Both the position numbers and the translations under genes were made by a program. Below are positions 35,051-61,659 of a stretch of 64,000 bases of DNA, one piece after another. Positions within the stretch are counted from its first letter, which is position 1; each line of letters begins with the position of its first letter. The stretch covers positions 25,873 through 89,872 of the forward strand of contig CAYLYJ010000001.1 in NCBI GenBank assembly GCA_964388185.1, in the 5' to 3' direction. Under the pieces are notes generated by a model. That model ran no database searches, was not told the origin of the DNA, and was given only the letters and a program-made list of their open reading frames with translations. The stretch comes from an uncultured Coriobacteriaceae bacterium. Its GTDB lineage: Bacteria > Actinomycetota > Coriobacteriia > Coriobacteriales > QAMH01.

Positions 35051-35800
35051 TTAGCAGCGCTGGATGATGCCCCTGCCTATGCCAGTCATTCGCTCTATCT
35101 GGCGTATTGATAGCCCGCATGCCTTGAGCTTGCAGATCGACGTGTCACGGAAGCGCTTGTCCTTCGTCAAAAGCAGCTCCCTCCACTCCGGGCCAAGCTC
35201 GTGCTCGGCTATCCGCAAGGCCCTGCCGTTGCTTGGCTTTGCGGGTTGCCGGGGTTTTGTCTCGATCTCGATGTGGGCGTCAGTCGCCATTGCGTGAAAC
35301 GCCTGGAAGGCCGCCAGGTTGTCAAACATGCCGCTCACGAGAGTGATATCGCATATGTTGGGCTGGCCCGTGTACTCCTGGTAGCTGCTCCACGCGTAGT
35401 CGAGCGACTCGCAAAGACCGCCCTCGATCGGGTTTCGGTGTATGTAGCGCACGACCGTGAGCAGCTGCTCGTCGCTCTCTATGCCCTGGCTGCCGAACCG
35501 CCCTTGGAAAAGGTGCCCCGTGTGCCGGTGGCATTTGTTGAAATAGCTCGCGTAGGTTGACTGAAGCGTGCGCATGAACGATGAGATGGCCGTGATCGGG
35601 GCTTGTAGTAGCAGATGGACGTGGTTATCCATGAGAACCCACGCGAGGACCGTAACGTGAAGCGAGTCCGAGAAGCGGGCGATCAGCTCTAGGAACTCGA
35701 GGCGGTCGTCGTTGTCTTCGAAGATAAACTGGCGTCCCACACCGCGGTTGAACACATGATAGACGCCGCTTGTGCATTCAGATCGCATGATACGGGACAT
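35051..35800 (-). CDS. rayT: IS200/IS605-family Y1 HUH transposase of the REP-associated (RAYT) type with C-terminal HTH, 249 aa
   Basis: HUH motif in MDNHVHLLL; catalytic-Tyr motif in VVRYIHRNP; overall COG1943-like sequence (YHVFNRG...FEDDDDR...GHLFQGRF). The C-terminal ACGLSIRQIERMTGIGRGIIQRC looks like a DnaA-domain-IV-like HTH. A strong SD (AGGAAGGAGGACC) precedes the ATG at 35800. Confidence 0.85.
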   Translation of the reverse strand: MSRIMRSECTSGVYHVFNRGVGRQFIFEDNDDRLEFLELIARFSDSLHVTVLAWVLMDNHVHLLLQAPITAISSFMRTLQSTYASYFNKCHRHTGHLFQGRFGSQGIESDEQLLTVVRYIHRNPIEGGLCESLDYAWSSYQEYTGQPNICDITLVSGMFDNLAAFQAFHAMATDAHIEIETKPRQPAKPSNGRALRIAEHELGPEWRELLLTKDKRFRDTSICKLKACGLSIRQIERMTGIGRGIIQRC

Positions 35801-44611: not shown

Positions 44612-44618
44612 GGAAGAT

Positions 44619-45572: not shown

Positions 45573-45672
45573 ATCGCTCTGACCTGCGGAAATGTGAATG
45601 GAATTTTGTGTCAAGGATTTTGAGCGAAAAAAAGCGCGGAACCCTCGGTCAGCGGCAAGAGGCGCAGAGAAC

Positions 45673-45697
45673 GTGACAGGGGTCAGGCCCCTGTCAC
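45673..45697 (+). repeat. REP-like 25-nt palindromic hairpin element
   Basis: GTGACAGGGG-TCAGG-CCCCTGTCAC. Confidence 0.9.
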
Positions 45698-45725
45698 ATA
45701 GCATCTACCGGGAGAAACGAGAAAC

Positions 45726-45750
45726 GTGACAGGGGCCTGACCCCTGTCAC
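45726..45750 (-). repeat. REP-like 25-nt palindromic hairpin element
   Basis: GTGACAGGGG-CCTGA-CCCCTGTCAC. Confidence 0.9.
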
Positions 45751-46071
45751 GGGGAAGCGCGGAAGGAAAATTGAGGCAAAAGCCCAGGTCAGAGGCCATA
45801 TGAAGATTATCGGATTAGTTGATAAAGCGCTGACCTGCGGGTTTAGGAAGCGCGGAAGCCCGCGTTTTTGAGCGCGGAAATGGCCAAATTGTGCCTCTGA
45901 GCTGGACATCCGCGGAAGCGCGGAGTACTATTCCGTCTGCTTCGCCAAGGAGTGGGCTGTCTCGCTCCTGGCGATTGTCAAGAAGGAAGTCTCGATTCGG
46001 GGGAAGGATCTCGAGTCGGGGCGTTCGCAAGAAATGGGAACGAATTGTACGACCGCAAGGACATAGAGCAG

Positions 46072-49000
46072 ATGGGGCTAGCCAACGCTGGCACCACTTG
46101 TGCTGTGCCTGCGGCCAAGGCTCGTAACCCGCTTGTGGCCTTTATTGCCGTCGTCTTTGTGGCGGCGGCCCTTTTGTTCGCAATGCCTTCTCTTGCGTAT
46201 GCCTCTAGCGAGGCCGAAGCTAGCCCACAAGCTAGCGAAGCGCAGGAAATCCTGCTTTCCCAGAAGGAGAGCAGCACGTCGGCGAACAAAACGCCTGATG
46301 AATCCCCAACACCACCAGGCTACACCGCCCAAGATGCCTTCAACATCGACCTCGGAGCTCAAGCTACCGAGGTCGATCTGGTTTCAGGGGACGGTGCTAG
46401 CAGCTATACACCTGGGGATGATAAGGCATCTATCAATGACAAAGACAGCGATGACGACTCTGATAGCGATAGCAACCAGGGAACTCATGACAAGGCTGAT
46501 AGCAACACTACTGCTGATGAAGACAGTGATGCTACCGCCAACCCCAAAGACGAGACTGATAGCACCGTTGATAGCAACGGTGCTTCTTCGTCTATCACCG
46601 ACGAGAAAGCTGCTGGTAGCGATGCTAACCAGAGTGCTGGTCCAACTGGTGATAGCAAGGCCGACGACGTGATTGCTACTGACCGTGATGGTCAGAGTGC
46701 AGATCAGACTGCCGGTGCCGCCGCGGATAACGCGGGGGAGGTGCAAAAAGAGCAGACCAAGCCGCAGGTACAGCAGCCTGCGAAGTCGCAAGTTGGAACC
46801 GCTAGTACGGTAACTCCTGCAGCAACGTCGGGTACAGTCCATGTTGTTTTCCAAACGTATGCAGCGGGTAGCTATAATTCGCTAGCAGCTGTTCTCGCTG
46901 GTACGCATACCACAATTGGCAATGCGACTGATAAGGTATATAAAACGACAAATGCGTTTGCCGGCTATGCAAATGGCGGCGATTCTTCGGTTACTTCTTT
47001 TGGTATTGGTTCTCCGAACGTTCTTCCTACGTATTACCGTTACGGCTATACGTTGAAGTCTTGGACGCGTGTTATGTGGAACGAGCGTCGAAGCCGGCTT
47101 GTAGTAAATACTTACAATGTTGGTGCTACGACGAATACAACGATTTTCCCTGCTGGTACTGAGGTTGTTCTTTTTGCAAACTGGGAGAGGGTTCAGTATT
47201 CTCTCTCTTATTATCAGACTGGATCGGCGACGATTGTTTGGGACAACAATTCCTCGTCCTCTTACTGGGACACTGTCCTTCCCTCGGAAACTCAAGTTCC
47301 AGTTACCGTTAATCCCGATCCGAATGTTTTCAGCACCTCTGGTGAAAACGGCAAGTGGCATCTCAAACCGCTTCAGACGGCACAGTTCAATAACTATGAT
47401 TTTGGCCTGAAGGTTGCGGATCATGCTGCAGATGGCTCCACGTCTTCTCTCGTTTACTACAATTTCACTCCGGGAAAGCCTTATGCTAACGGCGTACTGA
47501 CTGTGGGCCAAATTATCTCTGCTTATTATCCGCAGGGAGATACGTACGATGCTGCTCTGGGCAGCATTACCAAGTGGGAAGTTTTCCCCTGCTGGAACCC
47601 CACTCCTTCTACTGAATACAAGATTACCTTCGCGATCGGCAGCGGCGACTCCTCCAAGGGCACCGTTACCGGTAAGGAAATCAAAGTTGCAAATGATGGC
47701 ACGGGCAAGGTGACCTCCGCTCTGTGGACGGGCGCCAATGTCAGTGCTTCCGATACTAATAAGACCGATGGTTACCAGCTCAAGGCAAACGCCTGGACTG
47801 GTAAGATCGGCACCAACAGCTACACCTTCAACTCCCTTGCCGAGCTCTATAACTTCGCCGTGTCCGGTGATATGGTGCTCTCTCCGGTCTGGGAGAAGAT
47901 TGCTGGTCCGTTTACCGTGACCTTCGATGCAAACGGCGGCAGCGTGACGCCCGGTAGCGCCAGCGCGACCGAGTTCACCGGCTCCATCACCATCCCCGCC
48001 GCACCGACTATGGAGGGTAAGACCTTCTCCGGTTGGTACACTGCGGCTTCGGGTGGCACCAAGCTCTACAGCGGCGGTGGCACCACCACCTACGCCGACC
48101 TCCTTAAGGCAATCTACGGCTCGAGCAATAACGGCACCAACCAATACAACGAGAACAACAAGAGCGTCACCATCTACGCACACTGGGGTGACGTCGAGTA
48201 TAAGTACCACTTCGAATCCAACGGCGGCAGTGGCATCTACAGCACGGTCGGCAGCGAGTCGACCACGACCTGGAACGGCACGATTACCGTTCCCGCCGCG
48301 CCGACCCCGGACTCCGGCTACAGCTTCGTGGGCTGGTTCACCGAAAAGGACGGTGCCGGCACGCAGGTCGCGACCGGCTCCGCGTACAAGACGCTGGCCG
48401 GCAACAACGCCGCGACGAAGAGCCTCACCTTCTACGCCTTCTTCAGGGAAGACGTCGTGAAGATGGAGTTCAAGGTCGCCGCCGGCTCGACGGGCAACGT
48501 GACCCTCGGCCACGGCTCGACGACCGGCCAGAACAGCATCACCCTGTACGTGGGTGCTGCGACCGGCAAACTCTATACCTATGATGGCGCCAACTACACG
48601 CTTGCCACCGGCAACGTCGGCGCCGTGACCCCGACCTTTGGCAGCAACTACCGCTACCAGAGCATCGGCTGGCTGGACGGCAGCGGTGCCGAGCTCAACT
48701 CCTCGAGCGCCCAGGCCCAGTACGTCACCATCAACACCACGACGGGCGTCTTGACTCCGAAGGCCTATAACGGCACCTACCGTGCGGGCACCTACAGCAT
48801 CAAGGCCGCCCCGAAGCCCTACTACTACAAGGTCGAGTATTACCTGCAGGGTCTCGATGGCTCGTGGGCCTCGACCCCGACCGAGTTCACGAGCGGCACT
48901 GCCAACTACGGCACCGCCGTGCAGGTGAGGAACTTCTCGGCCGATACGACCGCTACGCAGGTCGACCCGAAGACGTACGCCGGCTTCACCTACACCTCGA

Positions 49001-52000
49001 CCGTCATCGGCTCCGTGGGCCGCATTGACGCGATGGGTGTGGGCACGACCTCGAACTACGGCACGAACATCCTCAAGCTCTACTACACCCGCAACCAGCA
49101 CACCGTGACGCTCGACTGGGCAAGCGCGCCTGCTGGCGTTGCGGCTCCGACTTTCACCATCGGCGGCACGTCGATGAACTCCGGTGCTCAGGTGGGCTAC
49201 GGCCAGACGGCCGTGACCGTTCCCGAGCCTGCGGCCGTTCCCGGTTACGTCTTCGTGGGCTGGACCCGCGCGACGGGCTCTGCCGCCGTGACGCTTTCCC
49301 CGATCGGCTCGACCAAGGGCGTCACCTTCACGATGCCTGACGGCAACGTCGTGCTGACCGGCACCTGGCGCGCCATGAAGTACCGCGTCGAGTTCGTCAA
49401 CGACGACCGCACCGACCAGCACAGCTGGGGTTCCCTGAGCACCGGTAATGGCGCATGGAGCGTTTCCGGTTCGGGCATCAACGCCAAGTACACGATCGAC
49501 GTCGACCGCGGCACGCAGATCAAGCCGTCTGGCATGACCGCCATCAGCGCTCCGGGCGCGACGCCGTCCAACAGCAATAACTATTACTTCACCGGTTGGG
49601 AGTACTACAACGCTTCCGGCGCCAAGCAGTTCTGGGGTGCTGGTTCGACCAACAACCTCGTGATCGATCCCTCCAACTTCAGGGTCACGACTACGGGCCT
49701 GCCGAGCGGCATCGATGGCATCATCACCATCACCGCGCGCTGGGGCCTCGTGCGCGTCGTGAGCTGGACCACTTCGACGCCGGGCACCTTCGCCGGCGTC
49801 AACAAGACGCAGATCAAGGACGACGACGCCGGCAACACGCCGACGATGACCGAGGCCCAGGCGACTTTCGACCAGCTCAACGGCCAGAAGGACACCACGA
49901 GCACCAACCCGCGCAACACGGGCAAGCCCATGGGCAAGGTCGGCTACAAGTTCACCGGCTGGCATTGGGAGATGACCGGCGCCGACACCGGTACGCAGTA
50001 CTACACCACGATCGCCTCCGAGAACGGCCTTTCCATCGGTGGCCATCGTTACACGTACATGAGCGAGGCCGACCTGGCCAACATGCCCGTGACCTGCTCG
50101 ATCACCTTCCTGGCCCAGTGGGCCCCGACCAAGCAGGTCGTCACCATCACCAATACGAGTCCGTCCGGCACCGGCACGTGGGCCGCAGGCTTCGATCCGA
50201 CCGTCCCCGACGACAAGCAGAAGACCGGCTCCACCTTCACCCTGCCGACTGCCAGCCAGATCACCAAGCCCGGCTGCACCTTCCAGTGGATGGACAACAT
50301 GGGCAAGACCTACGCCCCGGGTGCGACCTACACCGTGGGCGAGGGCAAGCTGAGCCCCAGCACCGACCCGACGGTCGAGTCGAACTACGTCATCAATATC
50401 TGGCCCGTGTGGGTCGAGGGCAAGGCGACCATCAACTACAAGCTCGGCAACGGCGTTGCCACCGGTGCCGGCGTCCTCACCAAGGCGAGCGAGACCGTGG
50501 ACCTCTCTGGCGGCAACCCCGCTGGCTCGGAGGCCAAGGCCAACCCCCACTACACCTTCGTGGGCTGGTTCACCGACGCCGCCTGCACGCAGAAGATCAC
50601 CGATATGAACTGGGTCCATGACGGCTCCGCGGGCACAGGTACGCACCTCGTCCCCGGCAAGAACGCCTCGACCGGCCTGTTCGATACCGCGACCTACTAC
50701 GCGAAGTTTATCGCGACCACGTACACGATCACCTTCGTCTCCGACGACGACGACCACATCGGCAGCGAGCGCGGCACGGTTGCCACGGTGACCGGCAAGC
50801 AGAACCCCGCGCAGCTGACCTACAGCTCGCCTCTGTCCGGTAACGTGACCGTCACCGCCAAGCCCGGCTTCCGCCACACCGGTTGGAAGTACAGCGAGGA
50901 CGGCGGCACCACGTGGAAGACGATGGACACGGCCTTCAAGAACAGCGAGCACAACAACGCCGTGTGGGGCTCGATCATGCTGTACGCGACGTACAACATG
51001 CGCGATGACCTGAGCATCGCCTTCCGCGACGACACGTACACCTCTGGCCCGATCCACAACAAGAGCTACACCGGCATGTCGTGGGACGACAACGTGAGCG
51101 TAAGGCTCCCGAGCGGCTACGACGTGCGCCCCGGTTACAACTTCCTCGGTTGGTACTTCAACACCAATCCGAATGACGTCATGGACAAGGACATCAAGTT
51201 CTCGGCCGCGGCCGCCAAGTACGCCGCTCCGGATGGCGCGGGCGTCAATGGCCTCACGCTGTACGCCAAGTGGCAGGCCAAGGACGGCTACCAGGTCATC
51301 TACAACACGAACGGCGGTGGCACCGCTCCCGCTTCCAAGAACAACGTCAAGTGGGACCAGACCGGTCTGCTGGCTGCTGACCAGACCCGCGCCGGTTACA
51401 CCTTCCTCGGCTGGTTCGTGGATGACCCGAGCAACCATGACAACGACCGCAAGATCACCGCTGACAACGCCTACAGCGTGCTGGCAGCCGGCGATGACAC
51501 GAAGATGTCCGTCACGCTGACCGCGCACTGGAAGCAGAAGACCTACCAGATCCAGTACCTCGACAACGTGGGCACCACGCAGCTCGGCCATGCCGGCTCG
51601 TCTTCTGACACGCTTGCCAAGGTGCTGTACTGGGACAGCGTCGTTCCGACCTTCACCCCGACCAAGACCGGCTCCACCTTCATCGGCTGGACCTATGGCA
51701 CGGGCACGACCGTTGGCACCACGACCAAGATCTCCGATCTGGCCGGTGGCGTCGATGTCGAGGACGGCCACACGTTCATCGTGCGCGCCTCCTGGCAGGG
51801 CAACCCCACCTACACCATTAACTACTACCTCCTCAAGCGCAACGCTGACGGCACCTACACCGCCAATGGCGCTCCCGAGTCCCTGACCTTCAGCGGCTAC
51901 CTGACGCCGGGCGTCGACGCTGATGCCACGAACCTCCAGGGTGCTGGCGAGAGCGCGGCCGTGAACTACTGGACGAAGTTCGCCAAGGCCGGCTACGCTG

Positions 52001-55000
52001 CCGACACCACCAATATCCATGGCAAGAACGTGATCCGCTTCAACGGCGGCGCGATCATCGCCAACTCCGGTACGAACCACGTGTTCAAGCTGTACTTCTA
52101 CGAGAAGGAGTACACGCTGAAGTACGTCGACGACAACGGCAGCGCGTTCACCCCGCCGGTCGCCGACAAGGTCGTGGGCTGGGAGAGCTCGAGCCTCGCC
52201 CCGACGACTGCCCCGACGCGTCCGGGCTACGGCTCCGTGTCGTGGACCTACAATGGTACGCCCGTCGCGGGCAAGACCATCGCTGACCTCCTCGGCGCTT
52301 CCGGTGAGAACACCACGACCCTCACGCTCAAGGCCGTGTGGGGCGAGAACAAGACCACTATTACCTACACCGTCTCCGGTCCGAGCGGCAGCGCGAGCGT
52401 GACGCCCGGTAGCGAGCAGATCAACTCCGCCACGGGCACGGCCACCGGCTCCAAGGTGACGCTGTCCGATCCCACCAGCTACAAGCTGCTCGGTTGGTTC
52501 TACAACGACGGCGCCGGCGAGGTTGCCGTGGACTCCAACTGGGTTGTCAACAACGCCGACGGTTCCATCTCGATCGTTCCGCAGAAGGAGGGCGGCGTCT
52601 ACGTGGCGCGCACCTACTATGCGAAGGTCGCCGAGCTCTCCGCGCTCAACTACACCGTCGAGCACTACTTCATGAAGAACGACGGCACGTATGGCACCAC
52701 CGCTGACGAGACCGCCAGCGGCTCCGACAAGGAGAACGTGACCATCAACGCCGCTGACAAGAAGGTCACGCGCCAGGGCTTCACCTACGACGCCTCTGCC
52801 GCTGGCAGCATCACGTCGATCACGCTGCTCACCACCGATCCGGATGGCAGCCGCGTGCTCAAGCTCTACTACGTGCGCGATTCCTACACCATCGAGGTCA
52901 TCCCGGCCGAGGCTGGCAAGGACTCCCCGTCGCCGGCGCCGAGCATCGATGACTCGCACCTCACCGACGGCAAGAAGTACATGGGTTCCTCGCAGAACCT
53001 GCCGATCGTGGGCAACCATGACGGCTGGACGCTGACCTGGAAGCTCGACGATGGCACCACGCTTTCCGCCACCGACACCTCCTTCATCGTCCCGTTCGAG
53101 GCCGACGGCAAGGTGACGCTCACCGCCGTGTGGACCCGCAACAAGATGAACGTCTCGTTCACCGACGCCGACAAGCCGTCGACCCCGGCTGGCTTCTCCG
53201 TGACCGCCAGCCCGGTCAAGGTCGACTTCGGCAAGAACCTCTCCAGCGTGTCCGGCTGGAACATGAGCAAGGTCACCGTGACGCAGCCGAGCGAGTGGGC
53301 GCTCGTGGGCTGGGAGGTCTGGAACGCCGACCACACCGTGAAGCTGGGCGACGTCGCCGACCCGATGATCTGGACGATCGACCAGGACACGATCTTCAGC
53401 GCCAAGTGGGCCCAGACGCTCGTCGTCACCTACTACCCGGGTGACCATGCGGCTGCCGGCCAGAACTCCAAGACCTACCAGGACTACAAGTCCTCCGATA
53501 ACGCGCCGATGCCGAGCTGGGCTTCCAAGACCGGCGGCAACCCGAGCGCCGACCATCCCAATGCCGCCACCGGCTACGCCTGGATCGGCTGGAAGTGGAC
53601 GCTCGACGGCGTTGACTACTACTTCTACGCCAACCCGGCCGACGCGCTGGCTGGCACGACCAGCACCGCGATGCCGACCACGGTCGACAACAACTACGCA
53701 TTCACCGCGCTGTACAAGGCGCTTGACCGCACGCTCTCGTTTGACCTGAGCGGCACCGAGACCTGGACCGACGGCGACTCCGCCACGTCCAAGACGATCG
53801 CCACCAAGACCGGCGAGACCATCCCGTTTGCCTCGATGCCGACCCCGCAGAAGGCTGGCTGGAAGTTCGTGGGCTGGAAGGTTTCCGGCACCGATGATTC
53901 CACCGCCATCAAGACTGGCATGAACTACCTCGTGCCCGCCATCGCCGATGACACGATCCACTTCGTGGCCGTGTTCAAGGTCGATGCCTGGTACGTCACC
54001 TACATCGTAGAGGGCGACGGCGGCGTGCGCGACAACGACGAGGACACCGTCTCGCCGACGCTCGAGACCGCCCCGAAAGGCTGCACCGCCAAGCCGAACC
54101 CCGGCTTCAAGTTCGTGGGCTGGTTCTGGCGTGACACCGACGGCACCGAGCATACCGTTGACGAGTCCTGGCTGACCCGCAACGCCGACGGCTCCGTCAA
54201 GATCACCCCGCATGCCGACAGCGGCACGGCCGGTAACTACGTCTGGGCCGAGCGCACCTACTTCGCGCGCTTCACCGCTGGCGACACGAGCTTCAAGATC
54301 TGGTACATGCAGCAGAACGTGGATGGCACCTGGGGCGCCACCGCCGCTGACATCGAGACCGTGACGACGACCACCGCAGGCGCGAAGGTCACGACCGGTC
54401 AGACCTACCAGATCAGCGACTTCACGCTCAAGAGCTTCCTCGGCTTCGTGCTGAGCAGCGACAACAACGGCCAGCCGACCGACGTGACCGTCCTCGGCAA
54501 TGGCTCCAGCGTGCTCAAGGTCTTCCTCGAGCGCGTGAAGAACGACGTTACCTTCGAGTTTGCCCCGGGCGATGCCCCGAGCGGCGTGACCGTGCCTCCC
54601 GCGATGACCGACCAGGTCTTCGGCAGCACCGTCACCCTGCCGACCGTGAGCGCGCCCGGTTACAAGTTTGGCTGGACCGCCAAGTACACGGACGAGAACG
54701 GCGCGGAGCAGACGCTCGCCATCAGCGGCGGCAGCTTCACCATGCCGGCCTTCCCCGTGACCGTGACCGGCACGTGGACCAACCCCGTGTACCATATCGT
54801 CTTCACGACGGACCAGGCCGGCGCCGGCAACATGCCGAACGCCACCAATACTACGGACTTCGACCGTTACAACTCCGACCCGAGCTCGACTGCCAACACG
54901 ATCTCCTGGAACGGCAGCGGCTGGGTGCCCATGGGCATGGACGGCAACATCGTCATCCCGACCTACGATGGCATGACCTTCAAGGGTTGGTACTACAAGG

Positions 55001-58000
55001 ACGCTGCTGGCAAGTACCAGCCGCTGACCGACGACGTGACGTTCGCGATGCTCGCTGGCAACAACCCGAACAACGAGACCGCCTACATCTACGGTAGGTG
55101 GGACAAGGCCCTGTACCTCGTCATCTTCGAGTACGACGACGGCCGCGAGATCGCGACTGACGACGAGGTCGAGTGGGATCAGACCGTGAGCGTGGCCACT
55201 GGCGGCCGCCCGAGCATGCCTGGCTTCAGCTTCGCTGGCTGGTACTACATGAAGGACGGCGCGCAGGTTGCCTACACCGGTGGCAAGACCTTCGAGCAGC
55301 TGGCGGCCGAGCTTGGCCTGACCGCTGCCGACAAGGCCGACACGGGCCGTGGCATCCACCTCATCGCCAAGTTCACCCAGAACCAGACCTTCACTGTCAA
55401 GTTCTACAAGGGCGCCTACGACGAGAGCGGCAACCTGGTTGCCGGCCCGCTGTACGACGAGTCCGACGTGTACGAGATCGCCGACGGCGCGACCATCCAG
55501 CTCGTGCTGCGCGCTGATGGCGACTTCGACCTGGTGCTGACCGGCAACGAGGCCGACGGCTCCAAGCTCCCGAAGCTCATCGAGATGCCGTTCATCTCCG
55601 GTTACGTCTACGACGCCAACCTGAGCCGTGCGCTCGACATCCTCAGCACGACCGACGGACGCTTTGCCGGCGAGCTCGCCATCTACCTGGCGCCGCGCCG
55701 CGACTACAGCATCACGTACGTCATCCAGATGCCTGACGGCTCGACGAAGAACGTGACGACGCGCGCCAACCTGGCGTGGGATTCGACGGGCCACGCTGGC
55801 GTGACCGCCACCGCTCCCGCCGGTTACAAGATCGACGGCGGCTGGTTCTGGAAGAGCCAGTCCGGCAAGACCGGCACGGTGGCCGCGGCCGATGCGTACT
55901 CCGAGCTCGTCAACAAGATCTTTGGCAAGAAGGACACCTCCAAGAAGAACATCACGCTGTACATCAAGGCAGTGGCCCAGACCTACAGCGTCATCTTCGC
56001 CGACGATAACAACGGCGCGGACAACCCGTACACGCAGATCAGCCGCAAGGACGGCATCACGTGGGGCGGTAAGGTCGCGATGACTGCGGCCAGCAAGCCC
56101 GGCTACGAGTTTGCCGGCTGGCAGATCCGCCCGGCTGGCGGCTCGGCCGTCACCGTGAGCGATGGCAACGTCTTCAGCAGCCTGGCCACGCGCCTGGGCC
56201 TGACGGATGTCACCGCGCTCGACACGCCGGTCGTGATCTACGCCGTGTGGAACAAGTACGTGGGCGTCACCATCGAGTTCTACAAGGACAGCGTGAGCGA
56301 CGCCAACAAGCTGCCGCACGTGCAGAAGTACACGGGCGACCAGACCAAGAAGAAGGCCGGCGAGACCTACTCCGTCGCCAAGAGCCTGATCGACAGCCAG
56401 CGTCCGGCCGGTTACACCTCGCCTGCTGGTGCCTCGATGAAGCTTCTGGTCGACGAGGCCAACAACATCATCAAGGTGATTTACACCCTCAACAAGAACT
56501 TCAAGATCGTGCTCGACGCGAACTACACGGGCAAGCCGGCTGACCAGACCGTGAGCGGCCTGGCCTGGACCGAGAAGCCCGACGCGAAGATCACGTGGGC
56601 TCCGAGCCGCATGGGCTACGAGCTGAAGGCCAAGCCGCAGCGCTGGAACACCCGCGCCGACGGCAAGGGCACGAGCATCTCGGCCGACATGACCTATGCG
56701 CAGATCGCGCAGCTGCTGAAGCTGGACGAGAGCGCGGCGCTCAAGAGCGGCCTGAAGCTGTACGCCCAGTGGGCAGTCGCCAACAACTTCGAGGTCCTCT
56801 ACGACCTCAACAACGACCGCGAGACCAACAAGAAGGTCACGACCGCCGTGCCCGACGACCGCACCCCGATCGATGTCGAGGAGCTCAACGAGCACAAGGT
56901 CGCCTGGAACAAGGGTGGCTTCGACAAGTCCAACGACGGCGAGCTCGATGCCGCACCCAATGGCTACGAGTTCGACGGCTGGAACACGAAGGCCGACGGC
57001 ACGGGCCTCAAGATCGACAGCTCCATGACCTACGAGCAGATCTCGAAGTACATCAACAAGAACGCCGCGCAGAAGAGCATCACGCTGTACGCGCAGTGGA
57101 AGGAACTCGTCATCGAGATCACGTACGTGGTCGATAACGAGGCCGCAGGCACCATCGACCGCAAGGTCGACAAGGTGAGCGCCGTCACGAAGCAGGCCGT
57201 GAAGGACGGCTCCTCGGCTGGCACCCAGCTGCACTCCGTGGCGACCGCCAAGCCTGGCTGGCACTTCGTCGAGTGGGTCCTCGTGACCGACGACATGACG
57301 GCCAAGAGCGGCGAGACCTTCGCCAACGTGATGAAGAAGCTGCGCGACGACGAGAGCGAGCTGCAGATTCTGTCGCACGCCAACGACGGACGCCTCTACG
57401 GCGCCACCTACATGGCGAAGTTCGCACGCAACGACAACGCGACGATCGAGTACGATCGCAACGACGACCTTGAGAACAACATCCTGGGCACCGGCGAGAT
57501 CAAGGATCAGACCACCGCCCATGGCAGCCATGTGAACCTGTCCAACGGTTCCGAGTTCAAGCGTGGCCACTACACCCTCATGGGCTGGAACACCGAGCCC
57601 GACGGCTCCGGCACGCACTACGCGCTGGGCCAGACCGGCATCGTGATGCCGGTCGAGGGCATGAAGCTGTACGCCGAGTGGGGCATCAACAACTACGGCG
57701 TGACCGTGAACGGCCCGAAGGACGGCGGCTCCGTGCAGCCCGGCTCCACCACGATCACGTGGGGCGAGAAGGTCCCGAAGGAGTTCGTGGACAGCCTGAA
57801 TCCGTGGGCTGACCTCGGCTGGCACTTCACCGGTTGGGAGTACAGGATGGTCGACGCCGACACGGGCGAGGTCATCACCGGCTTCACGACCGACCCGACC
57901 ACGCTCACCGTCAAGGGCGAGCTGGAGCTCACCCCGGTGTTCGAGGGAGCTGACCTCGTGGACGGCCCGCCGCGCACCGGCGACGACTCCTACGAGTTCG

Positions 58001-61000
58001 AGCTCACGCTGGCCGCCCTGTGGACGGCACTGGCCGCGGCCCTGGCAGCGCTGCTGCTGATGGTGGTGGCCCGCCGCCGCCGTCGCGCCGAGGAGGCGTG
58101 CGAGGCGCTCGAGGCCGAGGCTGCCGGCGTGTACGGCGTGCACGCAGCCGCATGGGGCAACGGGCGCGCGACGCGCACGCTCGCGGCCAGCGGTTACGGT
58201 GCGCATTCGGTGCGCACGGACGGCTCGCGGGTGACGCGCGTGGAGCTGGCGGCTGCGGCGGCCAGCGCGAGCGTCGAGGGCTGCGAGACGCGCGAGGAAT
58301 ATGTGGAGCGCGCGATTGCGTGCGGTATGGGTGCTCACGCCGTGGCGTCGAGCGCCCTTTGCGATGACAACGAGCTGCGCTCGAGCTGCTGCGGCGCCCA
58401 TTCGGTGGCCGCTGCGGGTCGCGGCGCGCATGCGATACCGGTTCTGGCCGACGAGGCCGCCGCTGGCGCCGTGGAGCGCCTGGGCGCGGCCGAAGGAGCC
58501 CACACGGTCTCCAAGGCCGGAGAGAGCGCTCTGGATCGCCTGGTGGCGGCTTACGGCGAGCACAGCGTGCGCCGCGCCGACGATGGCGTCTGGGAGAGCT
58601 TCGACAACGTGGTGGCGCCGGTGCGACCGGCGGCTCCGACGGCCCGCGAGCGCGTGGCCGCTGCGATGCGCGGGCTCAAGCCGCGCGTGAGCGGCGCCGG
58701 TGCGCACGAGGTGGCGACGGCTGGCGAGCAGCTGGCGAGCGTGACAGGGGTCAGGCCCCTGTCACATGTGCAGCTGGCCTGCATTTATGCATGGATGTGC
58801 AATAGTAAACGTGAAATTTTCGGCACCGATTTCGTGGCATACGAAGCTCCGGTGCCTGCGAGCAAGGCGCAGCGCAAGGCTGCAAAACAGGCTGCGAAAA
58901 ACGCTGGCCTCCGCGGTGGACTATTTGGCCGCGGCAACGTGACAGGGGTCAGACCCCTGTCACATAATGGCGAAACCGCAGGTCAGAGCGTATTCGCCGT
59001 GAGAAATTTGCCCTTCGAAGGGGATAACTCTGCCCATTTACGGGCGTACTGTGCCCTCAGCCAGGCGGATGCGGAGCTCGCACCGCCTGTCGCGTATGAA
59101 ATGAACGTTTCCGCCGTTCGACCGCGGTCAAGGCGCATGAAATTAGCCTTGGGCATGCCATCGGTGATCTTGGCGTTGTGCCTGGCCACGTTTGGTGTGG
59201 GTGCGCATCTCTCACCGAGCGTCGCAATGGCCGACGAAACATCTAGTACTAGTGCAGCCGGCGTCGTGGCCGCCGTGATCGGGGACGATTCTACGGCCTC
59301 TCAGGCGTCTTCGGCATCTGGGACGGGTCTGGACAAGGCCCCGGCCTCTAACGGGGCTCAGACGGCAAATACGGGCGTTGCAGGAGATTTGGGCAACGCG
59401 GCTAATAACGCTTCGACCAGCGGAAACGGTACAGATACCGTGACTAAGGGCGAAAATGCCACTCTTAATACCAATGGTTCCGATACCAATACTAAGGACG
59501 TTCAGGACGCCGAGAAGGGCGTCGAGGGCGATTCTGAGGCCTCTGAGGGCCTCGAGAAGGCCCCCGAAGCCACTCCTGGCGAGGATAAGGACGCCGTGAA
59601 GGACGCTGCTGACGCCGATACGAGCGCTGCTGGCGATTCCTCCACCAATAAGGACGCGACCGCGGGGTCCGAAAATACCCCGAATTCCTCCGAAAATAAT
59701 TCCGATCGCCACCAGAATGATGGCGGAAACGACTCCGATTCCAACGATTTCGACGAGCCGGTGCTCCCCGCCGAGGGCCAGCCGACGGCTCCTTCCCCGG
59801 CAGATCAGCCGACCGACGATGATACCTCGACACCCCCATCTAGCGGGGATGATAGCAGCAATGCTAGCTCATTGACCACGCAAGATAGCCTAGCACCGCC
59901 GGGTGCTAGCACCCAATCCGATCCACCTCCATTGGACTCCGGAACGTACTTCATCCGATGGAACGAGCAATCGGACTTTTGGATCGGAGAAAAGGATAAT
60001 CAAGTCGCCGTTTACCACAACCCTGGTACCGGCTTGCCTATTTTCTGGAATATAGACTTCGTGTCTAATTCTTCTGCTTATGTGATCAAGATTGGCGATA
60101 TGTACCTTGGCCGGGCGGTTTCCGACGATGAGTACTCCCTCGTCCTTCTTGACTCCGTGAGCGATGGCCAAAGTGAAATTCTTTGGGATATTTTCGCGAC
60201 CGAGAATCTCGAGCCCGGAACCTACTTCATTTGCGACCCGACGCGTTCCATTTACGTACGCGCGAGGCAGACCGACGAGACCGAGCTGACGCTTCTGGTC
60301 CGTGGCGGCATGGCTGAGGTTCCCGTCGCGAACAGTTACATCTGGATGATTGGTCAGCCTCCCGCGCAGGATTGGTCGATTGAGTACTTCCCCGCGGGCG
60401 CGACTGAGGGTACGACTCCCGAGACGAGTGTTTCCAGCGTCTCCGGTGCTACCATCCCCGAGTGCGGCTACAAGCGCTTCGGCTATACCTTCATTGGTTG
60501 GAACACTGCCGAGGACGGTACGGGCACGGCTTACATGCCCGGCGACTTCGTTCCCGGCGACGGCGTGCTTTCCGAGGACTTCGTGCTGAGGCTCTTCGCT
60601 CAGTGGAAAGAGGCCTTCGTCAACATCACCGTTAGTATTAGTGGGGGCGGCACCGTCAAGGACGACGCCACTAATAAGAAGAGTGACAGCATCACGCAGA
60701 CCGTGAGCTCCGCGACGGGTCTGATCAAGGACACCGCCGACAAGGGCTTGAGTGGCGTGACTGCCGTTCCGGGCCGCGGTTTCCACTTCGGCTCGTGGCT
60801 CATCGATGGCGGCGTTGGCTCGATCGCGGATTCGCTGCGCTTCAACAAGACGCTGACCGCCGATCAGATCATGCAGCTTTCGAAGTTCACCGATCCCGAG
60901 ACGGGCTGGACGCTGTTCCATGACACGACGCTCGTTGCGGACTTCATCGCTAATACTTATATGATCAAGTACGACGCCAACGGCGGCCTGGGTACCATCG

Positions 61001-61659
61001 CCGCGCGCAGCGTCGATTACGGTTCCAGCGCCGTGCTCACCAAGGCCGACGCGCTCAAGCGCGACCGCTACAAGTTCAAGGGCTGGAACACCAAGGCCGA
61101 CGGCAGCGGCATTGCCGTGAGCGATGCCGAGACGCTCGAGCGTCTGCTGGCTGCCGGTGTCCTGGCCGATGCCGATGGTGCGATCACGACGCTGTATGCT
61201 CAGTGGGAGCTCATCCCCGAGGACACGCCCGCTCCTGCGCCGAACACCACTCCGAATGCCACGCCGAGCAACGGCGATGACGGCAACAACTATGGTGGCT
61301 ACCGCGGTTACCGCGGCTGGGGTTATGCGTACGCCGACGAGGCCGAGCTGCCCGCCGCCGAAGAGACCGACGAGATGCTCGACGCCACTCCTGCGAGTGA
61401 CGAGATGATCACGACCAAGGGCGGTAACCCGGTGCTCGACTTCTTCGGCACGGATGCCGGCAAGGTCGTCGCCGTCGTTGGCGGCGCCGCGATTACGGTC
61501 GCGGTTATTGCCGGCATCGCAGCACTCGTCGCCGCACATGGCGCCGCCGGTGCTGCTGGCACAGCCGGCGCGGCTGGAGCCGCGGCTGCAGAGGGCGGCT
61601 TCTTCTCCCGCCTGCGTAGGAGGATCGCGAACTTCTTTGGACGCGGCAAGCAGGGTTAA
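46072..61659 (+). CDS. Giant cell-surface repeat protein ORF, uninterrupted for 5,195 codons; probably two genes fused by lack of a stop
   Basis: ATG at 46072 gives MGLANAGTTCAVPAAKARNPLVAFIAVVFVAAALLFAMPSLAYA/SSE, a signal peptide; the track start at 45952 (GTG) adds 40 non-signal residues. An acidic S/T/D-rich region is followed by many Flg_new-type repeats and MucBP-like modules. A sorting-signal-like PPRTG + TM + RRRRR lies at 57967-58086. There is no in-frame stop until TAA at 61657-61659 (per the ORF track). The frame crosses a GAHxV-repeat tail, two REPs (58741, 58939) and a second signal peptide at 59101/59137. Confidence 0.8.
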   Translation: MGLANAGTTCAVPAAKARNPLVAFIAVVFVAAALLFAMPSLAYASSEAEASPQASEAQEILLSQKESSTSANKTPDESPTPPGYTAQDAFNIDLGAQATEVDLVSGDGASSYTPGDDKASINDKDSDDDSDSDSNQGTHDKADSNTTADEDSDATANPKDETDSTVDSNGASSSITDEKAAGSDANQSAGPTGDSKADDVIATDRDGQSADQTAGAAADNAGEVQKEQTKPQVQQPAKSQVGTASTVTPAATSGTVHVVFQTYAAGSYNSLAAVLAGTHTTIGNATDKVYKTTNAFAGYANGGDSSVTSFGIGSPNVLPTYYRYGYTLKSWTRVMWNERRSRLVVNTYNVGATTNTTIFPAGTEVVLFANWERVQYSLSYYQTGSATIVWDNNSSSSYWDTVLPSETQVPVTVNPDPNVFSTSGENGKWHLKPLQTAQFNNYDFGLKVADHAADGSTSSLVYYNFTPGKPYANGVLTVGQIISAYYPQGDTYDAALGSITKWEVFPCWNPTPSTEYKITFAIGSGDSSKGTVTGKEIKVANDGTGKVTSALWTGANVSASDTNKTDGYQLKANAWTGKIGTNSYTFNSLAELYNFAVSGDMVLSPVWEKIAGPFTVTFDANGGSVTPGSASATEFTGSITIPAAPTMEGKTFSGWYTAASGGTKLYSGGGTTTYADLLKAIYGSSNNGTNQYNENNKSVTIYAHWGDVEYKYHFESNGGSGIYSTVGSESTTTWNGTITVPAAPTPDSGYSFVGWFTEKDGAGTQVATGSAYKTLAGNNAATKSLTFYAFFREDVVKMEFKVAAGSTGNVTLGHGSTTGQNSITLYVGAATGKLYTYDGANYTLATGNVGAVTPTFGSNYRYQSIGWLDGSGAELNSSSAQAQYVTINTTTGVLTPKAYNGTYRAGTYSIKAAPKPYYYKVEYYLQGLDGSWASTPTEFTSGTANYGTAVQVRNFSADTTATQVDPKTYAGFTYTSTVIGSVGRIDAMGVGTTSNYGTNILKLYYTRNQHTVTLDWASAPAGVAAPTFTIGGTSMNSGAQVGYGQTAVTVPEPAAVPGYVFVGWTRATGSAAVTLSPIGSTKGVTFTMPDGNVVLTGTWRAMKYRVEFVNDDRTDQHSWGSLSTGNGAWSVSGSGINAKYTIDVDRGTQIKPSGMTAISAPGATPSNSNNYYFTGWEYYNASGAKQFWGAGSTNNLVIDPSNFRVTTTGLPSGIDGIITITARWGLVRVVSWTTSTPGTFAGVNKTQIKDDDAGNTPTMTEAQATFDQLNGQKDTTSTNPRNTGKPMGKVGYKFTGWHWEMTGADTGTQYYTTIASENGLSIGGHRYTYMSEADLANMPVTCSITFLAQWAPTKQVVTITNTSPSGTGTWAAGFDPTVPDDKQKTGSTFTLPTASQITKPGCTFQWMDNMGKTYAPGATYTVGEGKLSPSTDPTVESNYVINIWPVWVEGKATINYKLGNGVATGAGVLTKASETVDLSGGNPAGSEAKANPHYTFVGWFTDAACTQKITDMNWVHDGSAGTGTHLVPGKNASTGLFDTATYYAKFIATTYTITFVSDDDDHIGSERGTVATVTGKQNPAQLTYSSPLSGNVTVTAKPGFRHTGWKYSEDGGTTWKTMDTAFKNSEHNNAVWGSIMLYATYNMRDDLSIAFRDDTYTSGPIHNKSYTGMSWDDNVSVRLPSGYDVRPGYNFLGWYFNTNPNDVMDKDIKFSAAAAKYAAPDGAGVNGLTLYAKWQAKDGYQVIYNTNGGGTAPASKNNVKWDQTGLLAADQTRAGYTFLGWFVDDPSNHDNDRKITADNAYSVLAAGDDTKMSVTLTAHWKQKTYQIQYLDNVGTTQLGHAGSSSDTLAKVLYWDSVVPTFTPTKTGSTFIGWTYGTGTTVGTTTKISDLAGGVDVEDGHTFIVRASWQGNPTYTINYYLLKRNADGTYTANGAPESLTFSGYLTPGVDADATNLQGAGESAAVNYWTKFAKAGYAADTTNIHGKNVIRFNGGAIIANSGTNHVFKLYFYEKEYTLKYVDDNGSAFTPPVADKVVGWESSSLAPTTAPTRPGYGSVSWTYNGTPVAGKTIADLLGASGENTTTLTLKAVWGENKTTITYTVSGPSGSASVTPGSEQINSATGTATGSKVTLSDPTSYKLLGWFYNDGAGEVAVDSNWVVNNADGSISIVPQKEGGVYVARTYYAKVAELSALNYTVEHYFMKNDGTYGTTADETASGSDKENVTINAADKKVTRQGFTYDASAAGSITSITLLTTDPDGSRVLKLYYVRDSYTIEVIPAEAGKDSPSPAPSIDDSHLTDGKKYMGSSQNLPIVGNHDGWTLTWKLDDGTTLSATDTSFIVPFEADGKVTLTAVWTRNKMNVSFTDADKPSTPAGFSVTASPVKVDFGKNLSSVSGWNMSKVTVTQPSEWALVGWEVWNADHTVKLGDVADPMIWTIDQDTIFSAKWAQTLVVTYYPGDHAAAGQNSKTYQDYKSSDNAPMPSWASKTGGNPSADHPNAATGYAWIGWKWTLDGVDYYFYANPADALAGTTSTAMPTTVDNNYAFTALYKALDRTLSFDLSGTETWTDGDSATSKTIATKTGETIPFASMPTPQKAGWKFVGWKVSGTDDSTAIKTGMNYLVPAIADDTIHFVAVFKVDAWYVTYIVEGDGGVRDNDEDTVSPTLETAPKGCTAKPNPGFKFVGWFWRDTDGTEHTVDESWLTRNADGSVKITPHADSGTAGNYVWAERTYFARFTAGDTSFKIWYMQQNVDGTWGATAADIETVTTTTAGAKVTTGQTYQISDFTLKSFLGFVLSSDNNGQPTDVTVLGNGSSVLKVFLERVKNDVTFEFAPGDAPSGVTVPPAMTDQVFGSTVTLPTVSAPGYKFGWTAKYTDENGAEQTLAISGGSFTMPAFPVTVTGTWTNPVYHIVFTTDQAGAGNMPNATNTTDFDRYNSDPSSTANTISWNGSGWVPMGMDGNIVIPTYDGMTFKGWYYKDAAGKYQPLTDDVTFAMLAGNNPNNETAYIYGRWDKALYLVIFEYDDGREIATDDEVEWDQTVSVATGGRPSMPGFSFAGWYYMKDGAQVAYTGGKTFEQLAAELGLTAADKADTGRGIHLIAKFTQNQTFTVKFYKGAYDESGNLVAGPLYDESDVYEIADGATIQLVLRADGDFDLVLTGNEADGSKLPKLIEMPFISGYVYDANLSRALDILSTTDGRFAGELAIYLAPRRDYSITYVIQMPDGSTKNVTTRANLAWDSTGHAGVTATAPAGYKIDGGWFWKSQSGKTGTVAAADAYSELVNKIFGKKDTSKKNITLYIKAVAQTYSVIFADDNNGADNPYTQISRKDGITWGGKVAMTAASKPGYEFAGWQIRPAGGSAVTVSDGNVFSSLATRLGLTDVTALDTPVVIYAVWNKYVGVTIEFYKDSVSDANKLPHVQKYTGDQTKKKAGETYSVAKSLIDSQRPAGYTSPAGASMKLLVDEANNIIKVIYTLNKNFKIVLDANYTGKPADQTVSGLAWTEKPDAKITWAPSRMGYELKAKPQRWNTRADGKGTSISADMTYAQIAQLLKLDESAALKSGLKLYAQWAVANNFEVLYDLNNDRETNKKVTTAVPDDRTPIDVEELNEHKVAWNKGGFDKSNDGELDAAPNGYEFDGWNTKADGTGLKIDSSMTYEQISKYINKNAAQKSITLYAQWKELVIEITYVVDNEAAGTIDRKVDKVSAVTKQAVKDGSSAGTQLHSVATAKPGWHFVEWVLVTDDMTAKSGETFANVMKKLRDDESELQILSHANDGRLYGATYMAKFARNDNATIEYDRNDDLENNILGTGEIKDQTTAHGSHVNLSNGSEFKRGHYTLMGWNTEPDGSGTHYALGQTGIVMPVEGMKLYAEWGINNYGVTVNGPKDGGSVQPGSTTITWGEKVPKEFVDSLNPWADLGWHFTGWEYRMVDADTGEVITGFTTDPTTLTVKGELELTPVFEGADLVDGPPRTGDDSYEFELTLAALWTALAAALAALLLMVVARRRRRAEEACEALEAEAAGVYGVHAAAWGNGRATRTLAASGYGAHSVRTDGSRVTRVELAAAAASASVEGCETREEYVERAIACGMGAHAVASSALCDDNELRSSCCGAHSVAAAGRGAHAIPVLADEAAAGAVERLGAAEGAHTVSKAGESALDRLVAAYGEHSVRRADDGVWESFDNVVAPVRPAAPTARERVAAAMRGLKPRVSGAGAHEVATAGEQLASVTGVRPLSHVQLACIYAWMCNSKREIFGTDFVAYEAPVPASKAQRKAAKQAAKNAGLRGGLFGRGNVTGVRPLSHNGETAGQSVFAVRNLPFEGDNSAHLRAYCALSQADAELAPPVAYEMNVSAVRPRSRRMKLALGMPSVILALCLATFGVGAHLSPSVAMADETSSTSAAGVVAAVIGDDSTASQASSASGTGLDKAPASNGAQTANTGVAGDLGNAANNASTSGNGTDTVTKGENATLNTNGSDTNTKDVQDAEKGVEGDSEASEGLEKAPEATPGEDKDAVKDAADADTSAAGDSSTNKDATAGSENTPNSSENNSDRHQNDGGNDSDSNDFDEPVLPAEGQPTAPSPADQPTDDDTSTPPSSGDDSSNASSLTTQDSLAPPGASTQSDPPPLDSGTYFIRWNEQSDFWIGEKDNQVAVYHNPGTGLPIFWNIDFVSNSSAYVIKIGDMYLGRAVSDDEYSLVLLDSVSDGQSEILWDIFATENLEPGTYFICDPTRSIYVRARQTDETELTLLVRGGMAEVPVANSYIWMIGQPPAQDWSIEYFPAGATEGTTPETSVSSVSGATIPECGYKRFGYTFIGWNTAEDGTGTAYMPGDFVPGDGVLSEDFVLRLFAQWKEAFVNITVSISGGGTVKDDATNKKSDSITQTVSSATGLIKDTADKGLSGVTAVPGRGFHFGSWLIDGGVGSIADSLRFNKTLTADQIMQLSKFTDPETGWTLFHDTTLVADFIANTYMIKYDANGGLGTIAARSVDYGSSAVLTKADALKRDRYKFKGWNTKADGSGIAVSDAETLERLLAAGVLADADGAITTLYAQWELIPEDTPAPAPNTTPNATPSNGDDGNNYGGYRGYRGWGYAYADEAELPAAEETDEMLDATPASDEMITTKGGNPVLDFFGTDAGKVVAVVGGAAITVAVIAGIAALVAAHGAAGAAGTAGAAGAAAAEGGFFSRLRRRIANFFGRGKQG
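57967..58086 (+). other. Cell-wall-sorting-signal-like segment (PPRTG, hydrophobic helix, RRRRR)
   Basis: Codons read directly: P-P-R-T-G (57967-57981), DDSYEFE, LTLAALWTALAAALAALLLMVVA (58003-58071), RRRRR (58072-58086). The layout matches LPXTG-type signals, but the L is replaced by P and the ORF does not end after the basic residues. Confidence 0.5.
58087..58740 (+). other. Ala/Gly/Arg-rich tail with eight G-[AVE]-H-x-[VAI] motifs
   Basis: The motifs are at 58135 (GVHAA), 58198 (GAHSV), 58330 (GAHAV), 58393 (GAHSV), 58423 (GAHAI), 58495 (GAHTV), 58555 (GEHSV) and 58699 (GAHEV), all in the gene frame. The tail ends at the REP at 58741. Confidence 0.6.
58741..58765 (+). repeat. REP lying in frame inside the giant ORF
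   Basis: GTGACAGGGG-TCAGG-CCCCTGTCAC, translated as VTGVRPLSH. Confidence 0.9.
58939..58963 (+). repeat. REP variant lying in frame inside the giant ORF
   Basis: GTGACAGGGG-TCAGA-CCCCTGTCAC, translated as VTGVRPLSH. It is followed at 58976-58988 by CCGCAGGTCAGAG, a motif also seen at 32195 and, inverted, at 45577. Confidence 0.9.
59101..61659 (+). CDS. Alternative reading: separate surface protein (852 aa from ATG 59101, or 840 aa from ATG 59137) with signal peptide, beta-trefoil-like domain, Flg_new repeats and a C-terminal TM anchor
   Basis: MNVSAVRPRSRRMKLALGMPSVILALCLATFGVGAHLSPSVAMA/DE is a canonical signal peptide in the same frame as the upstream ORF. An S/T/N/D-rich region follows, then a triple [FLI]-W segment (59938-60360) and two Flg_new-type repeats (GYTFIGWNTAEDG...LFAQW; YKFKGWNTKADG...LYAQW). 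The C-terminus has the hydrophobic VVAVVGGAAITVAVIAGIAALVAA and a basic tail RLRRRIANFFGRGKQG. Confidence 0.55.
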   Translation: MNVSAVRPRSRRMKLALGMPSVILALCLATFGVGAHLSPSVAMADETSSTSAAGVVAAVIGDDSTASQASSASGTGLDKAPASNGAQTANTGVAGDLGNAANNASTSGNGTDTVTKGENATLNTNGSDTNTKDVQDAEKGVEGDSEASEGLEKAPEATPGEDKDAVKDAADADTSAAGDSSTNKDATAGSENTPNSSENNSDRHQNDGGNDSDSNDFDEPVLPAEGQPTAPSPADQPTDDDTSTPPSSGDDSSNASSLTTQDSLAPPGASTQSDPPPLDSGTYFIRWNEQSDFWIGEKDNQVAVYHNPGTGLPIFWNIDFVSNSSAYVIKIGDMYLGRAVSDDEYSLVLLDSVSDGQSEILWDIFATENLEPGTYFICDPTRSIYVRARQTDETELTLLVRGGMAEVPVANSYIWMIGQPPAQDWSIEYFPAGATEGTTPETSVSSVSGATIPECGYKRFGYTFIGWNTAEDGTGTAYMPGDFVPGDGVLSEDFVLRLFAQWKEAFVNITVSISGGGTVKDDATNKKSDSITQTVSSATGLIKDTADKGLSGVTAVPGRGFHFGSWLIDGGVGSIADSLRFNKTLTADQIMQLSKFTDPETGWTLFHDTTLVADFIANTYMIKYDANGGLGTIAARSVDYGSSAVLTKADALKRDRYKFKGWNTKADGSGIAVSDAETLERLLAAGVLADADGAITTLYAQWELIPEDTPAPAPNTTPNATPSNGDDGNNYGGYRGYRGWGYAYADEAELPAAEETDEMLDATPASDEMITTKGGNPVLDFFGTDAGKVVAVVGGAAITVAVIAGIAALVAAHGAAGAAGTAGAAGAAAAEGGFFSRLRRRIANFFGRGKQG

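Follow-up and report, generated by a model that had tools for sequence, protein, structure and literature searches.

The window analysed here, a stretch of 64,000 nucleotides (nt) from an uncultured Coriobacteriaceae bacterium (contig CAYLYJ010000001.1), contains a single open reading frame (ORF) of 5,195 codons that runs on the forward strand from an ATG at 46072 to a TAA at 61657-61659. It encodes a giant surface protein in which a sortase-type sorting-signal look-alike is followed, without a stop codon, by a conserved tail, two in-frame copies of a repetitive extragenic palindrome (REP1 and REP2), an internal signal-peptide-like segment and a second ectodomain (Table 1). An initial annotation of the sequence had favoured two surface-protein genes read as one. 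We consider it highly probable that 46072-61659 is one genuine, evolutionarily maintained gene for a polytopic giant surface protein, and that the REPs lie in a translated cytoplasmic linker.

A six-frame stop count found zero stops in the ORF frame (frame 0) across 57900-59300. Within the junction between tail and internal signal-peptide-like segment (58741-59136), each of the other five frames contains 2-5 stops, and in 58852-59145 these frames carry 1-5 each while the ORF frame has none. Following dinucleotide-preserving shuffling of the junction, the frame was stop-free in 1.5% of shuffles (P = 0.015). This rarity, together with the absence of a stop, indicates that the open frame is real and unlikely to be due to chance. 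The missing stop and the 5,195-codon length reported by the initial annotation were thus confirmed, and all of its coordinates (PPRTG, helix, RRRRR, 218-codon tail, REPs, the ATGs at 59101 and 59137, and the signal peptide) proved correct.

The ATG at 46072 is most likely the true start of the giant ORF, although the ORF listing begins at an upstream GTG (45952), which gives 5,235 amino acids (aa). Some gene calls (the P0128 and P0132 N-termini; 45952-46071 in the window) start further upstream and pass through REPs at 45673-45750, which are there read in the opposite sense (RGLTPVT). The c-region of the N-terminal signal peptide is similar to that of this lineage's other signal peptides. Both parts of the protein match PF09479 above the gathering cutoff of 27 bits, A with 133.9 and B with 49.2 bits. 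GC content at third codon positions (GC3) in the ORF frame falls from ~0.9 to ~0.55-0.65 after position 58710, with values of 0.53-0.63 in the junction. As a coding test of the junction GC3 proved indecisive, because the low-complexity N-terminal regions of A and B are equally low. A minus-strand ORF (59890-61539) overlaps ectodomain B; its translation is rich in Arg, Gly and Val, typical of a shadow ORF.

Table 1 Features of the giant surface-protein gene and the associated transposase gene (TM, transmembrane helix; coordinates are those of the window).
Feature	Coordinates	Strand	Evidence
Whole gene, giant surface protein with Flg_new / InlB B-repeats	46072..61659	+	Pfam matches in both halves
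N-terminal signal peptide MGLANAG...AMPSLAYA	46072..46203	+	Hydrophobicity scan, hydrophobic peak, AxA site
Ectodomain A, ~3,920 aa, InlB B-repeat / Flg_new modules	46204..57966	+	Pfam PF09479 E = 2e-39; GC3 ~0.89
Sortase-type sorting-signal look-alike, PPRTG(D) + TM1 + RRRRR	57967..58086	+	
PPRTG	57967-57981	+	
TM1, 23-residue hydrophobic helix LTLAALWTALAAALAALLLMVVA	58003-58071	+	
RRRRR	58072-58086	+	
Conserved tail, 218 codons, proposed cytoplasmic	58087..58740	+	
Eight G[AVE]H motifs of tail	58135, 58198, 58330, 58393, 58423, 58495, 58555, 58699	+	
REP1, in-frame VTGVRPLSH	58741..58765	+	
Inter-REP region: conserved block IYAWMCNSKREIFGTDFVAYEAP (58783-58851), then basic linker	58766..58938	+	
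REP2, in-frame VTGVRPLSH	58939..58963	+	
Poorly conserved translated linker with CCGCAGGTCAGAG (58976-58988) and in-frame ATG 59101	58964..59136	+	
Predicted junction-spanning tryptic peptides EIFGTDFVAYEAPVPASK and NLPFEGDNSAHLR	encoded in 58741-59136	+	
Internal signal-peptide-like segment MKLALGMPSVILALCLATFGVGAHLSPSVAMA, proposed TM2: RRMK, hydrophobic core, SPSVAMA before D	59137..59232	+	
Ectodomain B: Ser/Thr/Asp-rich linker, globular region, two Flg_new repeats	59233..61464	+	Pfam
TM3 helix (61465-61536), Gly/Ala-rich stretch, basic C-terminus SRLRRRIANFFGRGKQG	61465..61656	+	
REP-associated tyrosine transposase (RAYT) gene	35051..35800	-	Pfam Y1_Tnp E = 3.7e-15; flanking REPs 35024, 35822

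One frame in conspecific and diverged assemblies

The exact 5,195-aa protein is present in the public protein collection, and its 90%-identity cluster contains eight more full-length proteins (5,196-5,344 aa), all of which cross the junction. These eight come from separate ENA, Logan and NCBI assemblies; the same single ORF in all of them excludes an assembly indel, an alternative that the initial annotation had raised. No stand-alone B protein starting at 59101 or 59137 was found in the public protein collection. The conspecific proteins differ in length within the junction, always in frame. REP1 is present as one, two (P0134) or three (P0127) tandem units of 45 nt or 15 codons (VTGVRPLSHVQLADG), the linker before REP2 is six codons shorter in P0129 and P0131, and REP2 carries eight extra internal codons in P0128 and P0132.

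Diverged relatives came from a word-indexed search for homologues, from an exhaustive search with HMMER and from two scans of the collection. These found the tail only in a small clade, one member of which is a metagenome-assembled genome labelled uncultured Coriobacteriia bacterium (haplotype L003). In L003, L004, L005 and L006, one open frame connects ectodomain A with the end of B, passing through DGPPRTGD, TM1, an Arg cluster and the tail, then through the junction and TM2; the open lengths are at least 4,540, 1,720, 4,559 and 4,576 aa, respectively. An independent fragment, P0004, likewise crosses the junction. The full ORF is intact in 13 haplotypes, nine of them conspecific and four heterospecific. 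Anchor and tail together form the best conserved segment of the whole protein (60-78% identity to the relatives, compared with 27-46% for ectodomain A and 39-42% for B), and DGPPRTGD is invariant across all relatives. The layout of TM3 and the C-terminus is identical in the relatives. Searches for homologues of B yielded mostly generic Flg_new repeat matches; the best of these, P0006, is located at the very start of a 4.5-kb contig, with the upstream junction outside the contig.

The heterospecific relatives have no REP1, and its flanks RVSGAGAHE and IYAWxC are kept there. REP2 is absent in L003 and L004, and a decayed copy (VTGGQTPWH) occupies the equivalent position in L005, L006 and L007. 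The interior of the junction is mostly unalignable between haplotypes and carries different insertions, yet the phase is kept: the distance from RVSxAGAHE to FGVGAH, within TM2, is 525, 525, 489, 603 and 654 nt in five haplotypes, in each case a multiple of 3.

Substitution patterns between the haplotypes were also inspected. In ungapped comparisons of the tail, differences at codon position 3 outnumber those at positions 1/2 (17 vs 10/8, 29 vs 15/13 and 37 vs 17/14). The inter-REP block is also conserved, reading I(Y/F)(A/T)WLC...GFV(A/V)Y(E/V)AP in L003, L004, L005 and L006. For this IYAWxC...FVAYxAP block a third-position excess is seen in the comparisons of the window with L003 (W-L003), the other pairs having too few differences. 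A similar excess is found both for the PQP(S/T)LVPSAAQ block before TM2 and for TM2 itself, and the 27 codons preceding TM2 encode conserved protein sequence in L005 and L006. As judged from these substitutions, it is shown that the tail, the inter-REP block, the pre-TM2 block and TM2 are under coding-type constraint. REP1 must therefore be translated, as it is flanked by two conserved coding blocks.

Neither the tail nor the inter-REP block has a match in Pfam, NCBIfam or PDB sequences. An exhaustive HMMER search of 1.84 billion representative proteins with the tail returned 5 matches, all from this clade, and these consequently provide no functional clues. The AlphaFold2 model of the 218-aa tail, based on a 5-row alignment, was unusable (mean predicted local distance difference test score, pLDDT, of 40.7).

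Alternatives to a single translated gene

A number of observations weigh against a single, continuously translated protein. The junction DNA looks intergenic, with low GC3, REPs and a REP-associated motif. The open frame of L003, taken alone, is weak evidence (shuffle P = 0.43), L001 has a stop after the tail and a broken frame, and L002 (Logan SRR24704840, ~10877-10882) carries a 158-nt tail deletion with 6-nt microhomology that shifts the frame. Candidate signals for a separate start of B are also present. An ATG directly precedes TM2 (59137) in the window species only, with a weak AAGG located 4 nt (GCGC) upstream; AGGAGGGGA-GTG is found 56-68 codons upstream of TM2 in L004, L005 and L006; and REP2 together with CATAAT (58939-58968) matches a sigma-70-like consensus at 10/12 positions. 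Separate expression of B besides read-through is thus possible. The very stable palindromes in the loop-coding region of the relatives (-76 and -94 kcal/mol) would need ribosomal unwinding, and the topology described below is based solely on a Kyte-Doolittle scan and charge rules.

The alternative that survives best is that the ORF is continuous but most of B arises as a protein of its own, expressed from an internal promoter and start codon, the fusion being minor or tolerated. In addition to the promoter match, the AAGG and the AGGAGGGGA-GTG, it can draw on the ATGs at 59101 and 59137, which are retained in 9/9 conspecific proteins, and on ATGs located 27-28 codons before TM2 in L003 and L004. 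B-like proteins that measure 800-1,000 aa and have signal peptides of their own furthermore exist in other taxa, matched mostly via Flg_new repeats. We nevertheless consider this unlikely. As there is no stop codon, every ribosome translating the tail must go on into B unless the mRNA ends, and the phase of the frame is maintained despite many length changes. The candidate starts for B vary in position and type between lineages, with L005 and L006 lacking any ATG, GTG or TTG within 49 codons upstream of TM2. Genuine gene starts in this lineage are marked by a stop codon together with a GGAG-rich ribosome-binding site and ATG-Lys. These features are all missing before TM2, and the window contains no strong ribosome-binding site of this kind before B. 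As for the promoter, the flanks of many REPs (CACATA...) could give such a match to the consensus.

The initial annotation had proposed that two separate genes were joined when REP insertion removed or displaced a stop, and that 58.74-59.10 kb is really intergenic. The stretch does look intergenic on account of its REPs, the REP-associated motif and its lower GC3; the PPRTG, TM helix and RRRRR layout terminates ordinary sortase substrates in related genomes; and the downstream part carries a signal peptide that is complete and, in the window species, comes with an ATG. However, coding-type constraint acts on both the 218-codon tail and the inter-REP segment, each of them conserved as protein. 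The comparison with orthologues, for which the initial annotation had named an open frame in REP-lacking relatives as evidence against two genes, was run and gave exactly this result: relatives without REP1, two of them also without REP2, are open in the same frame. This contradicts a history of stop displacement. A start codon near TM2 is also missing in most relatives. If there was a fusion event, it predates lineages whose ectodomains are only ~40% identical. We regard two REP-joined genes as very improbable, whereas the genuine fusion that the initial annotation listed as an alternative is supported by the single frame of the relatives and by the coding constraint.

Similarly little credence can be given to a decaying or pseudogenised locus, in which tail and junction would be non-functional read-through behind a once-terminal sorting signal. 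The linker at 58852-59136 is indeed poorly conserved and rich in mobile palindromes, and the tail deletion of L002 shifts the frame; that deletion could be either a real truncating variant or an assembly artefact. Pseudogenisation is at odds with the tail being the best conserved segment, with a coding substitution pattern, and with an intact full ORF in 13 haplotypes.

A sequencing or assembly artefact in the window (a missed stop or indel) is scarcely credible, given a continuous ORF in nine independent conspecific assemblies and in four haplotypes of other lineages, even though the error-prone assembly of one relative (L001) does change frame here. L001 is 97.3% identical to L005 over a 14.1-kb main aligned block, which carries 40 of the 41 indels between the two; these measure 1-3 nt (mostly 1-2 nt) and fragment the whole giant gene. 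It was rejected as a counter-example because such scattered small indels are typical of long-read hybrid assembly.

Predicted topology and comparison with known systems

In the numbering of the 5,235-aa GTG-start ORF, the four hydrophobic segments of the single protein lie at residues 60, 4021, 4398 and 5172. The charges beside them fit the positive-inside rule: TM1 is preceded by acidic residues and followed by RRRRR, TM2 has RPRSRRMK on its N-terminal side and acidic residues on the other, and the C-terminus beyond TM3 is basic. From these features we infer a three-pass topology after removal of the signal peptide. In the mechanism we propose, the N-terminal signal peptide would start Sec export of ectodomain A, and PPRTGD, the helix and RRRRR would stop transfer, forming TM1. 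Approximately 350 residues would then be kept in the cytoplasm: the domain that carries the eight GAH motifs, another conserved block (IYAWMC...FVAYEAP) and a loosely constrained linker. The signal-peptide-like segment at 59137-59232 would restart export as TM2, ectodomain B would be exported in turn, and the protein would finally be anchored by the third helix and a short, basic cytoplasmic C-terminus.

The sorting-signal look-alike is not C-terminal, as ~1,190 codons follow RRRRR, and the same is found in all relatives. Neighbouring genes in the relatives end in (V/N)PKTGD, a TM helix, ARRxRQ and a stop, and PPRTGD resembles these. On anchor profile hidden Markov models (HMMs) it scores 19.9 bits with NF033846 (NPXTG; cutoff 23.5) and 15.1 bits with TIGR01167 (LPXTG; cutoff 15.9), whereas the control sequences, which were terminal signals from neighbouring genes, reach lower values (13.5-14.4 bits). 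No sortase gene was found within the 64-kb window. The internal n-h-c signal, consisting of RPRSRRMK, the core, SPSVAMA and then D (59113-59235), lies within the one ORF, and its AxA site is kept in relatives (SPSVAMA / TPTSAYA), as in the genuine signal peptides of neighbouring genes. The resemblance of both PPRTGD and the TM2 c-region to genuine signals of the lineage makes cleavage by sortase and by signal peptidase plausible; the predicted, possible sites are PPRT|G and the position after VAMA, respectively. Where the hydrophobic core of this internal signal peptide ends, there is a ninth G-A-H motif (FGVGAH, 59200-59208), which every relative shares unchanged and which echoes the eight GAH motifs of the tail.

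A more speculative extension, which we think rather doubtful, is that the gene encodes a secretory polyprotein. Sortase would fix the 3,900-residue A to the cell wall, signal peptidase would release a membrane-anchored B, and the hairpin of TM1, loop and TM2 would display the GAH domain on the cytoplasmic side, where it might serve, for instance, as a sensor or docking module reporting export or anchoring. The palindromes could in such a case tune translation or mRNA stability, and hence the A:B ratio.

The N-terminal signal peptide, huge repeat-rich ectodomain, and pentapeptide with helix and Arg cluster are shared with LPXTG-type sortase-anchored proteins. In contrast to these, the look-alike is followed here by a conserved, predicted cytoplasmic domain and then by an internal signal peptide with a further ectodomain behind it, and its HMM scores are just under the cutoffs. 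Ebh of Staphylococcus aureus has a multi-thousand-residue repeat ectodomain and one TM anchor with a cytoplasmic tail. It is thus similar in that a giant repeat ectodomain is held by a TM helix, but the present protein has two ectodomains with a conserved, predicted cytoplasmic loop between them. The cytochrome b-c1 precursor FbcH of Bradyrhizobium japonicum is one ORF with an internal signal before a second exported domain. Compared with such internal-signal precursors, the upstream partner is here an adhesin-like ectodomain with a sortase-type signal, and cleavage is a prediction from sequence. Viral glycoprotein polyproteins also resemble it: a hydrophobic segment within the ORF, with basic residues ahead of it and AxA behind, comes before a second exported domain.

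A literature search for the combination of sorting signal, cytoplasmic domain and internal signal peptide found no relevant description of such a bacterial surface protein. If the proposed organisation is correct, a sortase-type sorting signal need not mark the end of a protein: the best conserved part would here be an unannotated domain after the sorting signal, followed by a second exported module. It would represent an undescribed Gram-positive surface-protein architecture and a candidate for the biogenesis of two surface proteins from one gene. For annotation, intergenic-like composition and REPs are insufficient grounds for splitting an ORF, and short or error-prone assemblies break this gene up and give misleading results.

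Palindromes in the predicted loop and across the window

The REP palindrome (GTGACAGGGGTCAGGCCCCTGTCAC) is a 25-nt imperfect repeat with 30 sites in the window against 0 expected, and each copy forms a hairpin of about -21 kcal/mol (-21.1 kcal/mol for REP1). With the RAYT gene flanked by two copies, the REP label of the initial annotation is well founded. The best NCBIfam match of the RAYT ORF is NF047646 (REP_Tyr_transpos) at 69.2 bits, under the equivalog cutoff of 80; it is likely the enzyme that mobilises the REP family of the junction. The element has two stop-free reading frames, of which the junction copies use one, and REP1 and REP2 share a frame at a spacing of 198 nt. No other large ORF of the window contains a full copy; the remaining 28/30 fall in the 32-46 kb region and at 61.7-61.8 kb, clear of all three giant surface-protein ORFs. 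The motif CCGCAGGTCAGAG occurs 5 times (at most 1 mismatch) against 0.15 expected, and three of the four copies outside the junction are 5-80 nt from REPs around 45.5-45.8 kb. The two junction REPs are copies of this RAYT-associated palindrome family and, in the proposed mechanism, are sited in a tolerant cytoplasmic linker and translated as VTGVRPLSH.

No exact match to the window-type REP was found in any fetched relative locus, and other palindromes are present there instead. L003 has a 103-nt inverted repeat (10650-10752; -94 kcal/mol) at the position of REP1 in the translated loop. A 79-nt inverted repeat (10959-11037; -76 kcal/mol) is found in the translated loop of L006 and is missing from the 98%-identical L005, and a hairpin pair occurs in that of L004 (2407-2484). 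Every lineage studied has at least one stable palindrome in the loop-coding region. The simplest reading is that the cytoplasmic loop is the one stretch of the gene that tolerates palindrome insertions. A regulatory role of the loop palindromes is possible but unsupported.

REP and REPIN elements associated with a RAYT transposase are extragenic by definition (PMC3116915, PMC3337134). The present family is alike in being a many-copy 25-nt imperfect palindrome accompanied by a Y1-transposase gene flanked by two copies, but differs in that two copies are inside a translated ORF and vary in number in frame between strains. Rickettsia palindromic elements, in contrast, are inserted in frame into protein-coding genes and measure about 150 bp (reviewed in PMC10969869). 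Like these, the junction REP is a mobile palindrome within an ORF that is stop-free and adds a recurrent peptide (VTGVRPLSH) absent from orthologues. The likeness is functional only: the element here differs in sequence, is much shorter (25 nt, or units of 45 nt), is of a RAYT-type REP family and is found in another phylum, and its insertions are confined to one disordered, predicted cytoplasmic linker, with a decayed copy in a second surface-protein gene. The locus would provide a clear non-Rickettsia case of REP-type palindromes residing within translated sequence, their copy number varying in frame from strain to strain.

The decayed REP-like palindrome (ATGTGACAGATGTGCCTGACCCTCTGTCACAT) is located at 27337-27368 within ORF 27045-31886, which encodes a 1,613-aa surface protein. 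It lies in a disordered region after the signal peptide and is read as VTDVPDPLSH, in the same frame as the junction REPs, which makes this ORF the second surface-protein gene of the window with a translated REP. REP density is extreme at 32000-46000 (~26 copies in 14 kb). The REPs there surround four paralogous AAA_14 + DUF4143 ATPase ORFs (36294-37601, 37822-39297, 39430-40785 and 42703-43863), and a helix-turn-helix (HTH) protein, a nucleotidyltransferase and the RAYT gene are also among them. A small ORF on the plus strand (32029-32814), directly 3' of the giant surface-protein genes, contains a CdiA_C (contact-dependent inhibition toxin C-terminal) domain (E = 2.7e-10), with REPs 32001, 32059 and 32248 at or within it.

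A further ORF of >9,000 aa (3-27035, open at the start of the window) has no hydrophobic anchor at its C-terminus. It shares its frame with the next, 1,613-aa ORF (27036-31886), the two being separated by a lone TAA at 27033-27035. In the relatives (L003 13622, L004 5161, L005 13679), the giant ORF and its downstream sortase-substrate neighbour are likewise in phase with one stop between them. Such in-phase tandems of surface-protein genes may hint at fusion or fission via the gain or loss of a stop codon.

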